Positions 1,527-5,386 of a stretch of DNA of 6,532 nt are shown here, piece after piece. The stretch's first letter is position 1. Each line of letters begins with the position of its first letter. Location of the stretch: IMG/VR virus record IMGVR_UViG_2660238548_000019. One strand, given 5' to 3'. Source of the stretch: a virus. Lineage: Duplodnaviria > Heunggongvirae > Uroviricota > Caudoviricetes. Both the position numbers and the translations under genes were made by a program. Under the pieces are notes generated by a model. That model searched no databases. It saw only the letters and a list, made by a program, of their open reading frames with translations, and had not been told where the DNA came from.

Positions 1527-2621
1527 TTAACTGACACCAGAATCATCATAACCGCGACTTGTTATAGCTTGCCTGTATGCGTTCATTTTGCGTTCTGCGT
1601 ACTGGACAACATCTTTAATGACAAGCTTATGAACAACTGAAATAAGGTCATTTATATAACAAAAGTCAGGTGACTTATTTTTCACTGGCAACCAAATAAC
1701 ATCGTTCTTAATTTTTCTATTACTAACACTATCCCCCCATGAATATTTATGTGAAATAGACCTATAAATACATGAAATAATGCCCAAATAAGCAAACTTT
1801 GTCCTTCCATCCTCATTGTTAACATAGAGTCGCAAATTATGACTGTCGTTTGAAAAAAAGTCTCGCTCCTGATAAGTTACAACGAATGTCTTACCACCAA
1901 TAAAAATACAGTTCCCTTTTTCCAAGAGTGAGTCATCATAGGCGATATAAGAACTAACAGAGTTATTATCACGGCTAGCACAAAGATAAGGAACATCCCC
2001 ACTATTTTCTATGATGTCTCTAGACAATATGTTTCCTGTATTGCACACTGAGAATAACTCAGTAACAGGAAAGCCTGAAAATTCAATATTTTTAAAATGC
2101 TCCAGGATAAGATAATCTTTTTCCGTTAGTTGGTAATCACTCAGCCCAGCAGCTATCAGGTATGCTTCCAGCTCTTCTATATGGGCCGCTTCCAGCTCTT
2201 CTATATAATTATCCATAAAAAACCAGTCAATTTCATTATTTTTCACTGGTAATGAGATGAAATATTCTCCATCTCTGAGTTTGGAACTCGATAACTGTTG
2301 ACCATAATTAAAACGCCCCTTTAAAGCTTTATTAATCATACTGGCAACATACAGTCCGCGCTTTGCATTAAAGTCGGACTTACTTGATTTTAATGTAAGA
2401 ACATGCACCTTCATTTCTACGCTGGCACAATAAGGATGATAAAAAGCATCTCCAAAAAAATTAACGCTTATAAAATTTTCATAATGCCTTGCATCATCCA
2501 TAAACTCGGTATCAAACTCTCCGATGATACCGTTTTGATCGCTCTTTGCTGAAACACGTTTGATTTTGCCTGGTTTTAATCTTCCTGAGGAGATAAGCGA
2601 GCCTGTGCTCACATAGAACAA
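1527..2621 (-). CDS. specificity subunit with two target-recognition domains (HsdS-like; comparable to BcgI B subunit)
   Basis: Track ORF starts at TTG 2621 with AGGA 8 nt upstream. The protein has an internal duplication typical of two-TRD specificity subunits: TRD starts VEWGEFRIGDLFYVSTGSLI versus IEFSGFPVTELFSVCNTGNIL, and TRD ends SKLRDGEYFISLPVKNNEIDWFF versus SNRKIKNDVIWLPVKNKSPDFCY. The first TRD-start motif lies upstream of the TTG in the same frame (open back to TGA 2705-2703) with no ATG/GTG/TTG, so the true N-terminus is unresolved. Confidence 0.6.
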   Translation of the reverse strand: MFYVSTGSLISSGRLKPGKIKRVSAKSDQNGIIGEFDTEFMDDARHYENFISVNFFGDAFYHPYCASVEMKVHVLTLKSSKSDFNAKRGLYVASMINKALKGRFNYGQQLSSSKLRDGEYFISLPVKNNEIDWFFMDNYIEELEAAHIEELEAYLIAAGLSDYQLTEKDYLILEHFKNIEFSGFPVTELFSVCNTGNILSRDIIENSGDVPYLCASRDNNSVSSYIAYDDSLLEKGNCIFIGGKTFVVTYQERDFFSNDSHNLRLYVNNEDGRTKFAYLGIISCIYRSISHKYSWGDSVSNRKIKNDVIWLPVKNKSPDFCYINDLISVVHKLVIKDVVQYAERKMNAYRQAITSRGYDDSGVS

Positions 2622-2640
2622 ATCGCCAATCCTGAACTCT

Positions 2641-2690
2641 CCCCACTCAACGCTTCTTAATTTATCGCTGAGCGGGGAATTTACTTTCCC
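2641..2690 (-). promoter_or_regulatory. candidate programmed -1 ribosomal frameshift cassette (slippery heptamer, spacer, hairpin) at the junction of the two R-M genes
   Basis: In the frame of the large gene the last codons are GCG GGA AAG TAA, giving heptamer G_GGA_AAG (minus 2690-2684, X_XXY_YYZ pattern) directly before the stop. A 6-nt spacer (TAAATT) is followed by a hairpin with 12-bp stem CCCCGCTCAGCG / CGTTGAGTGGGG (two G-U pairs, 13-nt loop; plus 2641-2677). The -1 frame after the slip reads GTA AAT TCC CCG..., which is the specificity-gene frame. Confidence 0.35.
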
Positions 2691-4642
2691 GCAAAATTGT
2701 TTTCACCTTGTTTTTTCAGTAATTGCGAGACCTCCCATGCAAGGTAATCACCTACCGTCTTTTTGAAATCCTCCAGCGTTGGCCTAGCATCTACTGGCCT
2801 GGTCTGATTCCAGTCCTCACCACTATCAGGATCGATTGTTCCCTCAAAATATTCATCCTCCGTAAAGATATTAAGGCAACCTTTCCCGAAGTGAACCAGA
2901 TCCACAACCTCCTGATAACGCTCTTTTGCACGATCGGCATCAACAAGATTGTTTCTTGCCTTTTTGCGATTAGAGCGAGCGTAGCCGTCATTGGAAAAGT
3001 CGATAAACTTAACAGCCTGTTTCGCGTTATGCGGAATTTTTACCTGAAAAACGTAAATGTACGTCTGAACGCTTGATTTACCAATAAACAGATCCGCAGG
3101 CATTTTGATGCTTGCCAGCAAGGTATTTTCCTTGAGTATTTTTTTGTTGTACTCCGTAGCCTTTCCTGTGCCAGCTGAACTCTGGATAATCACTGCAGCA
3201 TAGCCTTTATCCATCATCGACAGCGCCTTCTGCACGAAAATCATGCCGTTACCTTTAGCTGAATACGGAGGATTGAGAATAAATGCGTCCGCAGGGAATT
3301 TTTCTCCTGTTTTCCCAAATCCATACTTGCCGTCAAAATCGGCCAGCGAGTCTTTATTGAGGATATTCGAGCTACCATCCCCCATCAAAATCATATTCAG
3401 GATGGCCAGCATATAAATACTGGATAACACCTCAAGGCCAAGAAGCTGTTCAGCCTTGATTTGCGCTTCCTTAAGTTGTAGTTCGTTCGGTGAGTGAATA
3501 TTTTCTCTGGCGTCAATGAGCATTTCATTCATTGCAGCCACAAGCAATCCCGCAGAACCTGTAGCAAAATCCCACACATAGGAATCTTTGTTTACTCTGG
3601 CGAGTCGTGCCAGCAATGTGGCAACATAAGGTGGTGTCAGAACGACGTCATTGAGCTTGTCCTGCGTAAATCCAAGCCAGCGATACATCTCATTAAACAG
3701 TTTGCCCGTAAAATCGGTGGTCAGTCCAATTTTGTAATACTCCCCAAGATCATCAACAACTTTAACAAACACGCGCTTTAACTGGCTTTCACCGTTGACT
3801 GGTTTGTTAATGTTTTCAGTCCACAGCGTATTTTGCAACGAGCGCAAAATCATTTCTCTTTTTGTTTCAGGAACAGCTTTCAGCCTTAAAAAATTCCTTA
3901 TTTTCCTGAAAATAATATCACCATCACGCAAGTCCTCCTCCGTTGAAGAGGTCAGTTCTTTTTTATCCAGCGGTGCTAACTTTCCCGGAATCCCCAACGT
4001 TGCAATAACGGTAGCCACAACAAGGTAAACACGATCACTTTCACCAAGCCCCTTTTCATTCTGGTAAATATCGTTATTCAGACGGGAAAGTCGCGTGTCT
4101 ATCTCTTCCTCTTTGCTGGCCTTGATTTTTTCCAGTTCTTCGGGAGGAAGATTAAGCAGCTTTATCTTGTTGAGAAATCCATCAACATTTTTATCAGCAA
4201 GGAACGATAAGTCGGTGAATTCACCAACCTTCTGTCCGGCTCCTAAATTATTCTTTGATACGTACCACACGCCGATTTCATGATGCAGTTCGCCTGTACC
4301 ATCATCGCGCCAGCCGGTCATACCAATAGCAATAATATCAGGGTAATTGGTGAACTGAAGAAGTGCGTTGGCATAATGGACTGCGCCATTCACCGCGTAT
4401 CCATTAATATTTTTAAAATTCCATTCTTTTCTGGCATCTTTGTTCTCAATAATACCGTTGCTGCCAAGTCTGATAAGCCTGTCCTTGTAGCCTTTATACT
4501 CGATGAGAACGGGATACTGCTTGCCGTATTTGTCCTTAACAAGGAGTTTTACGTCGGGACGATTACCGCCTGCGCCGCCATTTTTCGAAAAATAAGCGTC
4601 CAGTGCGTTATCGATCTCTCCGTTAAGTGATGCATTCTGCAA
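2681..4642 (-). CDS. restriction-modification polypeptide: N-terminal PD-(D/E)xK nuclease-like region plus gamma-class N6-adenine DNA methyltransferase (Type IIB BcgI-A-like); 5' end probably extends through the heptamer repeat to ATG 4881 after a frame restoration
   Basis: Track ORF of 653 aa starting at TTG 4642. Motifs read in the translation: RPD (aa 28-30) then EYK (aa 48-50), a PD-x17-ExK spacing; VVLTPPYVATLL (motif X) then WDFATGSAG (motif I) then FILNPPYS (motif IV), the gamma-class order. Size and two-gene layout match my recollection of BcgI (A about 637 aa, B about 341 aa). The frame stays open upstream of 4642 through the whole repeat as plausible protein (...TSSKSRKSVKSVEPEITELANSWLKSYRLDYK) with no in-frame start, until a stop at 4888-4886. 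Confidence 0.6.
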   Translation of the reverse strand: MQNASLNGEIDNALDAYFSKNGGAGGNRPDVKLLVKDKYGKQYPVLIEYKGYKDRLIRLGSNGIIENKDARKEWNFKNINGYAVNGAVHYANALLQFTNYPDIIAIGMTGWRDDGTGELHHEIGVWYVSKNNLGAGQKVGEFTDLSFLADKNVDGFLNKIKLLNLPPEELEKIKASKEEEIDTRLSRLNNDIYQNEKGLGESDRVYLVVATVIATLGIPGKLAPLDKKELTSSTEEDLRDGDIIFRKIRNFLRLKAVPETKREMILRSLQNTLWTENINKPVNGESQLKRVFVKVVDDLGEYYKIGLTTDFTGKLFNEMYRWLGFTQDKLNDVVLTPPYVATLLARLARVNKDSYVWDFATGSAGLLVAAMNEMLIDARENIHSPNELQLKEAQIKAEQLLGLEVLSSIYMLAILNMILMGDGSSNILNKDSLADFDGKYGFGKTGEKFPADAFILNPPYSAKGNGMIFVQKALSMMDKGYAAVIIQSSAGTGKATEYNKKILKENTLLASIKMPADLFIGKSSVQTYIYVFQVKIPHNAKQAVKFIDFSNDGYARSNRKKARNNLVDADRAKERYQEVVDLVHFGKGCLNIFTEDEYFEGTIDPDSGEDWNQTRPVDARPTLEDFKKTVGDYLAWEVSQLLKKQGENNFAGK

Positions 4643-4732
4643 CTTGTAATCAAGCCTGTAAGATTTAAGCCATGAGTTCGCCAGTTCGGTAATTTCCGGC
4701 TCAACAGATTTTACAGACTTTCTTGATTTACT

Positions 4733-4872
4733 GCTGGTCGCTGGTCGCTGGTCGCTGGTCGCTGGTCGCTGGTCGCTGGTCGCTGGTCGCTGGTCGCTGG
4801 TCGCTGGTCGCTGGTCGCTGGTCGCTGGTCGCTGGTCGCTGGTCGCTGGTCGCTGGTCGCTGGTCGCTGGTC
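4733..4872. repeat. perfect tandem heptanucleotide repeat (GCTGGTC)x20 (140 bp); GACCAGC on the coding strand
   Basis: Counted directly: 20 uninterrupted 7-bp units from 4733 to 4872. Because 7 is not a multiple of 3, all three frames translate the same heptad (TSDQRPA) with no stop codons. Confidence 0.97.
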
Positions 4873-5055
4873 TGGCAGCATAAAATCATCCTTTTATGAA
4901 AATCAACGTTTTTTGAGCACTCGCACACAAAAAATTACCGCATTGGTTGCAACGACAACCTTCATTTTGCGGAGCATATGACAAATAAAGTACGGGTGCG
5001 TTGAGGATGCCAGACACATCAGAGGTGGCGGGAGATTACTCCCCTGCCTGGTCTC

Positions 5056-5211
5056 TTACTTCTCAGATTCGTAGTCTACGAAGACAGCGACCTCCGTCTG
5101 GCCGGTTCGGATTCGTACCTCGCAGAAGTCTTTCCTCGTTACCAGTGCTATCACTACGACGGTAATACAGATGACGATCAGGGCGATTAACATCGCCTTT
5201 TGCTGCTTCAT
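5056..5211 (-). CDS. hok: Hok/Gef-family type I toxin (51 aa)
   Basis: Not in the ORF track. ATG 5211-5209, TAA 5058-5056. Translation MKQQKAMLIALIVICITVVVIALVTRKDFCEVRIRTGQTEVAVFVDYESEK is a classic Hok/Gef/RelF-like sequence. The leader just upstream reads AGGCAAGGAGAAGTAGGCTATG, like the hok leader of plasmid R1 as I recall it. Confidence 0.85.
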   Translation of the reverse strand: MKQQKAMLIALIVICITVVVIALVTRKDFCEVRIRTGQTEVAVFVDYESEK

Positions 5212-5214
5212 AGC

Positions 5215-5268
5215 CTACTTCTCCTTGCCTTTCGGCACGTAAGAGGCTAACCTAAGTTTGTAAGTCAT
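5215..5268 (-). CDS. mok-like leader ORF (17 aa) ending 3 nt before the hok start
   Basis: ATG 5268-5266 to TAG 5217-5215, translation MTYKLRLASLRAEGKEK. Its position matches the mok/hok coupling arrangement, but it is much shorter than R1 mok. Confidence 0.35.
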   Translation of the reverse strand: MTYKLRLASYVPKGKEK

Positions 5269-5386
5269 AGATTTGGCCTCAGATTAATGTTAAGCGTCCT
5301 GCAAGACGCGTAATGTTAACTGGGGCTTTTCTCTGTCTGCCTTACGGCTGCATGCCCGAGGCAGACAGCCTCAAGCACCCGCAGCT

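Follow-up and report, generated by a model that had tools for sequence, protein, structure and literature searches.

A very probable dnaX-like −1 ribosomal frameshift cassette at the junction of the RM and specificity frames of a Type IIB-like restriction–modification family

How is the specificity module of a restriction–modification (R-M) system produced when its reading frame has no dependable start codon? This question is raised by a stretch of 6,532 nucleotides (nt) of tailed-phage (Caudoviricetes) DNA, IMG/VR record IMGVR_UViG_2660238548_000019, hereafter called the window, in which a gene with nuclease and methyltransferase motifs (RM) is followed in another frame by a specificity (S) open reading frame (ORF). 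An initial annotation of this DNA had proposed that the junction is a programmed −1 ribosomal frameshift that would fuse RM to S. Based on a comparison with relatives we consider it very probable that the RM/S junction is such a cassette, similar to that of dnaX, from which both RM and an RM-S fusion would be made. The proposal is supported by conservation across phyla, compensatory changes in a hairpin and frozen synonymous sites, and further by S frames that have no start codon in about half of the loci and by colinear homologs in which RM and S share one frame.

The RM junction, the S ORF, the heptamer, the hairpin and a repeat tract are all located on the minus strand of the window (Table 1). 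The mechanical RM ORF extends from 4642 to 2681 and encodes 653 amino acids (aa) counted from TTG 4642, and the native start is ATG 4881, which is out of frame in the window. Read on the minus strand, the 3' end of the ORF is GCG GGA AAG TAA. The RM protein gave a Pfam match to N6_Mtase (E = 4e-21) and a weak match, below the cut-off, to VRR_NUC. The residues P29, D30, E48, Y49 and K50, together with DFATGSAG and NPPY, are invariant in the RM family alignment (A1), and RM is therefore a fusion polypeptide of a nuclease-type motif and a methyltransferase, as the initial annotation had assumed. The AlphaFold2 model of RM, made from a 15-sequence alignment, was poor (predicted local distance difference test 60.8, predicted template modelling score 0.40), and with this low-confidence model Foldseek returned weak fold matches to HsdM proteins and to the RM of BsaXI. 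Searches with RM, S and the family profile against the PDB sequences (phmmer, hmmsearch) gave zero matches even at E = 10, which may be a limitation of the search, given the N6_Mtase match and the fold matches to HsdM. In NCBIfam the matches, to hsdM and MAD2, all remained below the threshold.

The S frame is −1 relative to RM, is open from 2702, directly after TGA 2705-2703, down to 1527, and contains no ATG, GTG or TTG across 27 codons until TTG 2621 is reached, just as the initial annotation had read it. Pfam Methylase_S matches the frame in two stretches, which is the pattern of a specificity module with two target recognition domains (TRDs), and the motif IEFSGFPVTELF of the second TRD, said to parallel the start of the first, is present. 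Residues 18-179 of the extended S ORF match profile positions 2-167 of Methylase_S, and the start of this domain is located 10 codons 5' of the first canonical start, TTG 2621. The NCBI Prokaryotic Genome Annotation Pipeline (PGAP) placed the S start of an identical genome at GTG 2612. The frame has 385 aa in the window, compared to a median of 374 aa in the family. As one polypeptide combines a nuclease motif with an N6-adenine (N6A) methyltransferase and S has two TRDs, the pair appears to resemble a Type IIB R-M system.

The elements of the signal and their phase can be read directly in the window. The heptamer G_GGA_AAG at the end of RM fits the X_XXY_YYZ pattern in the correct phase and the 0-frame stop follows it immediately, so these two parts of the initial annotation stand. 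The 12-bp hairpin that had been noted 6 nt past the heptamer, with the arms CCCCGCUCAGCG (2677-2666) and CGUUGAGUGGGG (2652-2641) and including two G-U pairs, was also found, and ViennaRNA adds the pair U2678-A2640, by which the helix becomes 13 bp and the spacer 5 nt. This 13-bp hairpin has a folding energy of −23.3 kcal/mol (z = −6.8) and none of 200 dinucleotide shuffles was as stable. A role of the hairpin as transcription terminator was considered and rejected, as no U-run follows it. Upstream of the heptamer, the final three bases of the Shine-Dalgarno (SD)-like AGGUGA are the TGA 2705-2703 that closes the −1 frame, and the duplex of this element with the anti-SD has −6.9 kcal/mol. An Rfam scan found no family at the RM/S junction.

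The comparison of homologs that the initial annotation had called for was made with a one-genome-per-species scan of genome contigs, by which at least 504 stretches were found and 80 loci, with RM proteins 70-73% identical, were fetched. Their hosts belong to the Proteobacteria, Firmicutes, Bacteroidota, Campylobacterota, Spirochaetes, Gracilibacteria and Saccharibacteria. Throughout these phyla the heptamer is conserved, and so are the stop next to it, the spacer and the hairpin. The split arrangement of the window was present in 79 of the 80 loci; 74 loci have GGGAAAA or GGGAAAG followed immediately by TAG, TAA or TGA, and four have AAAAAAA and a stop. Of the 74 split loci that were tallied first, 71 have the stop directly against the heptamer, as do 6 of 8 further loci, and in five (L003, L005, L040, L043 and L097) the stop is located one codon past it. 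In L040 and L043 the order is GGGAAAG, one codon, TAA and directly the hairpin, with the 6-nt spacer between heptamer and hairpin kept. S is in the −1 frame in all split loci except for one decayed copy, L011, which has extra indels in the leader and in the hairpin. Another copy in decay is L001 (NZ_CP148357, 3127-4239), in which the S gene has lost 1 nt compared to the window and is thereby in two pieces. The pattern at the junction is far beyond chance, given that about 80 independent loci are arranged in this way.

Six IMG/VR viral contigs also have the complete signal, with an RM ORF in the 0 frame before it and an S ORF in the −1 frame after it. Additionally, E. coli and Salmonella carry diverged versions in which RM is about 85-90% identical and both the first TRD and the junction sequence are different. 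In these enterobacterial variants, which have a different S leader, RM ends with ...GAA AAA AAG TTG TAA, ...GAA AAA AAG CAG TAA or ...AAA AAA AAG CAG TAG. A_AAA_AAG is in phase in them, the frame of S is again −1 and lacks a usable start codon, and another hairpin (CUCCCG.../...CGGGAG) is located 3' of the heptamer.

Constraint on the nucleotides was determined with an information profile over 77 loci and covariation was determined over an ungapped alignment of 65 loci. Third codon positions 5' of the site carry about 0-0.7 bits. The base preceding the Gly codon carries 1.71 bits and is always G, or A where the heptamer is A_AAA_AAA, and the third base of the Gly codon carries 2.0 bits, the codon always being GGA. 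Similarly, the synonymous sites in both arms of the hairpin (NCC, CCA/TCA, GTT, GAG/AAG) carry 1.4-2.0 bits, and the third positions in the loop and the downstream flank carry 0.03-0.6 bits. Variants of the heptamer exchange G_GG for A_AA as a block, which changes the protein from LGK to LKK and keeps the slipperiness; with the alternative heptamers A_AAA_AAA and A_AAA_AAG the encoded residues differ and the site is still slippery.

Covariation was observed in the helix as well. In the 12-pair helix 97.3% of the cells are paired, compared to 34-48% in controls with slid partners. Compensatory changes occur at 5 of the 12 pairs (39 cells) and none of 500 shuffles matched the observed score; at pair 21-43, for example, UA is found 29 times, CG 22 times, UG 11 times and GC twice, with one mismatch. 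RNAalifold independently predicted the same helix. The helix length is kept at 11-12 bp across the loci, over the 77 loci the hairpin has a mean minimum free energy of −19.6 ± 2.7 kcal/mol, and 69 of these loci have a spacer of 4-6 nt. Protein-level conservation alone as the cause of the heptamer and the hairpin was rejected on the evidence of the synonymous sites and the covariation. Additionally, anti-SD complementarity of −6 kcal/mol or lower within −24 to −5 of the heptamer was detected in 62% of the 77 loci compared to 6% of the control windows from the same genes; no action of this SD-like element is expected in phyla that make little use of SD sequences.

Start codons are missing from many of the S frames. 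In 39 of the 77 loci no ATG, GTG or TTG was observed in the S frame from the last upstream stop to the conserved Trp in the S leader, which has the consensus (I/V)(D/N)xxLNxKLxxV(E/K)WGE(F/Y). Seven loci have an ATG that overlaps a TGA (ATGA), and the starts in the remaining loci are scattered and non-conserved. TTG 2621 of the window encodes Leu, and at this codon the form TTG is not kept across the loci (0.55-0.7 bits). The S frame has at least 330 aa in 64 of the 70 complete loci.

Natural single-chain homologs were searched with the conceptual RM-S product, which is predicted to have 1038 aa from TTG 4642, or 1120 aa from ATG 4881 with 21 copies of the 5' repeat described below, with the junction ...FAGK-VNSPLSDKLRSVEWGEF... 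and the junction peptide ...NNFAGKVNSPLSDK.... In-frame homologs of 850-1080 aa covered 80-99% of it. Those of 1040-1080 aa, for instance from Campylobacter concisus and C. showae, had 99% coverage and 52-57% identity, and those of 850-896 aa consist of RM and one TRD and had 58-68% identity. The colinearity includes the junction itself, where the alignment is free of gaps (...EEMGK/VLTPLNEKLKNVEWGEFRIGDLF in P0025 and ...NNFAGK/VNSPLSDKLRSVEWGEFRIGDLF in the window). The gene of P0025, L086, reads ATG GGA AAA GTA, with one extra A compared to the split genes and with the hairpin retained, and its protein is precisely the one predicted from the frameshift. Either this natural fusion arose very recently, or the extra A is a sequencing error in a homopolymer of a metagenome contig. 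The diverged in-frame genes (L047, L087, L089, L090 and L100) have no heptamer and their hairpins reach only −1.7 to −9.7 kcal/mol, and on these comparisons the signal is therefore specific to split genes. In one of them, the Campylobacter in-frame gene L100, A_AAA_AAG occurs in phase at codons 666-668 within a conserved ILKK motif, with a −1-frame stop two codons past it, so that a dnaX-like slip would give RM alone. This mirror-image site was rejected as a signal, as no downstream structure was detected (z = +1.3), and is probably fortuitous.

The proposed mechanism is as follows. Ribosomes that do not shift would end at the TAA and release RM, with nuclease and methyltransferase. Ribosomes that shift would move back by one base, from GGA-AAG to GGG-AAA, and continue with GTA AAT TCC..., giving a single RM-S chain. 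S would be made mainly or only as an extension of RM, because it has no dependable start codon of its own. One mRNA would in this way yield RM and RM-S, which together would have the (RM)2S composition known for Type IIB enzymes. BsaXI is (RM)2S and BcgI is A2B, and an artificial EcoKI M-S fusion is active only with extra free M (PMC3510504); from these cases it would follow that a mix of RM and RM-S reproduces the 2:1 architecture, and it is plausible that the frameshift ratio sets the subunit stoichiometry. In E. coli, GGGAAAG gave 0.28% frameshifting with no stimulator, 3.8% with the stimulators of the insertion sequence (IS) IS911 and 43% with the IS3 pseudoknot, and GGGAAAA gave 0.12%, 0.51% and 17%, respectively (PMC4066793 supplement). 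V_VV.A_AA.R is the most efficient class of motifs in E. coli (PMC5009743), and G_GG.A_AA.G is ranked among the three best.

The 5' end of RM contains a further element, a perfect heptanucleotide repeat just after the native ATG (Table 1). In simulation, the frame of ATG 4881 stops after 56 codons with the 20 copies of the window, leaving RM OFF, and 18, 21 or 24 copies turn RM ON with 728, 735 or 742 aa. Other E. coli strains have 64 and 89 copies. RM proteins in the ON frame begin with MLPDQRPATS(DQRPATS)n, and short ON-frame versions exist. The RM system is thus phase-variable, and OFF in the sequence of the window. As S would depend on the translation of RM, the repeat switch would turn off the nuclease, methylase and specificity activities together. 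No published description of the (GACCAGC) tract was found in the literature searched, which included a survey of repeat tracts in Type I systems. On the opposite strand PGAP annotates a 'YXWGXW repeat-containing protein' or a 'hypothetical protein' (window 4723-4899, (+); L002 4824-5390), and this ORF is probably spurious and created by the repeat, because its length tracks the repeat number.

Two rival explanations have S initiated without a frameshift. S could be a separate subunit that starts at the first canonical codon, TTG 2621 or GTG 2612, with the heptamer and the hairpin being incidental, and the clipped S from TTG 2621 was one of the alternatives given in the initial annotation. PGAP picks GTG 2612, an AGGA is located 8 nt 5' of TTG 2621, and BcgI and BsaXI have separate S subunits. 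We nevertheless regard this explanation as quite unlikely, as the Pfam S domain begins 10 codons before the TTG, the leader is conserved as protein 5' of any start in 39 of the 77 loci, and the frozen synonymous sites, the covariation and the heptamer-for-heptamer swaps are left unexplained. As the main route to S the TTG 2621 start is unlikely because this Leu codon is not kept as TTG. It is very unlikely, in our estimate, that S is instead made by termination and reinitiation at the codon that overlaps the RM stop, with the hairpin blocking independent initiation. This codon is always one of three, GUA in the window, AUA in most loci and AUG in the seven ATGA loci, and EcoKI provides a parallel in the 1-nt overlap of hsdM and hsdS, of which the translation is coupled (PMC3510504). 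However, the alternation of A and G is just the Z position of the heptamer, coupling needs no GGGAAAR, and neither the block change of G_GG to A_AA nor the spacer that is kept when the stop moves (L040, L043) would be explained. The SD-like element, 10-15 nt upstream, is also too far away to serve the overlapping codon. GUA and AUA are furthermore inefficient as start codons in bacteria, which counts against reinitiation.

The split could also be an inactivating frameshift in an ancestrally fused RMS gene, which would make the locus a decaying pseudogene, as the initial annotation had allowed. In-frame fused homologs do exist, L086 is one A apart from the split genes, and decay is clear in L011 and in the S gene of NZ_CP148357. 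Against this stand the same −1 arrangement in 79 of 80 loci across phyla, the diversified TRDs and the nucleotide-level selection on the signal, and because S is intact (at least 330 aa) in 64 of the 70 complete loci we consider inactivation extremely unlikely. A change of frame by slippage of the RNA polymerase (transcriptional realignment) rather than of the ribosome would fit the runs of AAAAAAA or AAAAAAAG, with 7-8 A in a row, in L031, L064, L070, L077, L003, L005 and L097. The dominant GGGAAAR, however, holds only 3-4 A, a run too short for appreciable polymerase slippage, and it is the ribosome that is stimulated by elements such as the conserved hairpin 5-6 nt downstream and the SD-like sequence upstream, which makes this explanation extremely unlikely.

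Several observations weigh against a programmed −1 frameshift or limit its reach. The slippage itself, its efficiency and its role in stoichiometry are what we infer from the sequences, and the trans-frame protein is a predicted one. The loci share ancestry, and sequence counts overstate the number of independent events. The 3' arm of the hairpin encodes the conserved V-E/K-W-G, so that a part of the conservation of this arm is at the protein level. The enrichment of SD-like sequences similarly overlaps a conserved acidic linker (E-D-D), and the test ignores phylogeny. In the window RM is phase-OFF at 20 repeats, so that few ribosomes would reach the site in this state of the genome. Besides the seven ATGA loci, about 30 loci have sporadic starts near the leader; S may thus also be initiated on its own or by coupling, alongside frameshifting, and in the window a minor clipped S could be made from TTG 2621 with the AGGA 8 nt before it.

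With these points taken into account, programmed −1 frameshifting remains the reading that we favor, and the junction can be compared with known systems. The likeness to dnaX (tau/gamma) is seen in a candidate internal SD-like element about 10 nt upstream, a heptamer of the V_VVA_AAG class and a stem-loop 5-6 nt downstream (PMC5009743), and for RM/S two products with a common N terminus, made from one mRNA in a set ratio, are likewise predicted. A ribosome that shifts in dnaX meets a stop after a short distance, so that the shift gives the shorter of the two products (PMC5009743), whereas the shift in RM/S would add 385 codons, which encode an entire specificity module, and the 0-frame stop is immediately next to the heptamer. 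The lambda G/GT genes share the identical heptamer, as gpG uses G_GGA_AAG (cluster G_GGA_AAG_4, PMC4066793), and orfA-orfB of IS3 and IS911 combine A_AAA_AAG with a downstream structure and give a longer fusion with a new functional domain. RM/S differs from lambda G/GT and IS3 in consisting of R-M enzyme genes of cellular defence and in its conservation across phyla. Its signal is a hairpin and an SD-like element and not a pseudoknot of the IS3 type, on a comparison that included no in-depth search for pseudoknots.

Among R-M enzymes, BcgI and BsaXI are similar in having an RM with a nuclease motif and a gamma-class N6A methyltransferase and a two-TRD S, and their ratio of 2 RM to 1 S would be reproduced by RM and RM-S. 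The S of the window differs in not being free-standing with its own start, and its RM has no detectable sequence similarity to any PDB chain. Type IIB enzymes of the AloI/CjeI type are single-chain RMS enzymes. The single-chain RMS homologs (P0022, P0047 and P0025) have the same domain order as the predicted trans-frame product and are colinear with it at 53-68% identity, but they are encoded in one reading frame, the diverged ones have no heptamer and hairpin, and the gene of the window would also yield free RM. In EcoKI the hsdM and hsdS frames are adjacent and the C terminus of M is near the N terminus of S (PMC3510504); S begins with an AUG of its own in this system, the M-S fusion is an engineered one, and EcoKI is not known to have a slippery heptamer or a hairpin.

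Full-text searches, the Atkins 2016 review, the GeneTack survey, the Sharma 2014 enterobacterial clusters and a 2025 frameshifting preprint gave no mention of an R-M gene with a frameshift, with subscription journals and REBASE notes being outside this coverage. The mechanism is thus of a known kind, and its family-wide use to append a specificity module to an RM enzyme appears to be undescribed. A wider proposition is that a widely transferred Type IIB-like family, bacterial and phage-borne, makes S only via a dnaX-like −1 frameshift, with RM and RM-S in a fixed ratio forming an enzyme equivalent to (RM)2S, and that it is the first such case among R-M systems; for this proposition in full we put the chances only slightly better than even.

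The window matches a lambdoid, Shiga toxin (Stx) phage-like prophage in 20-odd complete E. coli genomes and the phage PhiR12_3, with the R-M locus located between Q/hok-sok and a tRNA Ile-Arg-Arg cluster. PGAP names the two genes 'HsdM family methyltransferase' and 'restriction endonuclease subunit S', with S started at GTG 2612 or split into pieces. A hok/sok type I toxin-antitoxin module (5056-5211 and 5206-5380, both (-)) is located just 5' of the RM gene, between it and the antiterminator Q; for this module Rfam gave sok with 118 bits and PGAP called a Hok/Gef family protein. PGAP annotates three tRNA genes, two for Arg and one for Ile, 3' of the S gene (825-1071, (-)), as is typical of the late regions of Stx-like prophages. 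The name 'site-specific DNA-methyltransferase' is given next to them to a remnant of 114 nt (about 1112-1225) of which the N terminus is missing.

Table 1. Location of the RM and S frames, the candidate frameshift elements and the 5' repeat in the window.
Feature	Position	Strand	Description
Heptanucleotide repeat (GACCAGC)x20, perfect	4733..4872	(-)	just after ATG 4881; Tandem Repeats Finder 20.0 copies, 100% matches
RM gene	2681..4881	(-)	N-terminal PD..EYK nuclease motif and gamma-class N6-adenine methyltransferase (DFATGSAG, NPPY)
Internal SD-like AGGUGA (candidate 5' stimulator)	2703..2708	(-)	12 nt 5' of heptamer
Slippery heptamer G_GGA_AAG	2690-2684	(-)	X_XXY_YYZ phase; 0-frame codons GGA 2689-2687, AAG 2686-2684
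0-frame stop TAA	2683-2681	(-)	abuts heptamer; ends the RM-only product
S coding sequence (specificity, two-TRD) after the predicted −1 shift	1527..2684	(-)	first new codon GTA 2684-2682; stop 1529-1527; 385 aa
Stem-loop (candidate stimulator)	2640..2678	(-)	5' arm 2678-2666; 13-nt loop 2665-2653; 3' arm 2652-2640
First canonical S-frame starts	2610..2621	(-)	TTG 2621-2619, GTG 2612-2610; both within conserved TRD-start motif GDLFYV

Annotation of the family is affected directly, since pipelines choose some internal TTG or GTG arbitrarily as the start of S or label the gene partial, and subunit predictions of the REBASE style would need revising for RM/S if the frameshift is true. It would then belong to the small number of frameshifts with deep conservation in bacterial genes that are not mobile and, if confirmed, be a deeply conserved and easily assayed bacterial −1 frameshift beyond IS elements, phage tail genes and dnaX, for which about 80 natural sequence variants of the signal are in hand. 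A Type IIB-like enzyme would have in it a simple route to two RM per S from one transcript, and it would explain why S, which in free form could direct methylation to wrong sites, would not be made by itself. In the prophage copies of enterobacteria a single change in repeat number would silence the nuclease, the methylase and the specificity module together. The combination of frameshift and 5' repeat switch in prophages of pathogenic E. coli would thus imply all-or-none, phase-variable restriction and methylation, with relevance to the resistance against phages, to gene flow and possibly to epigenetic phase variation.

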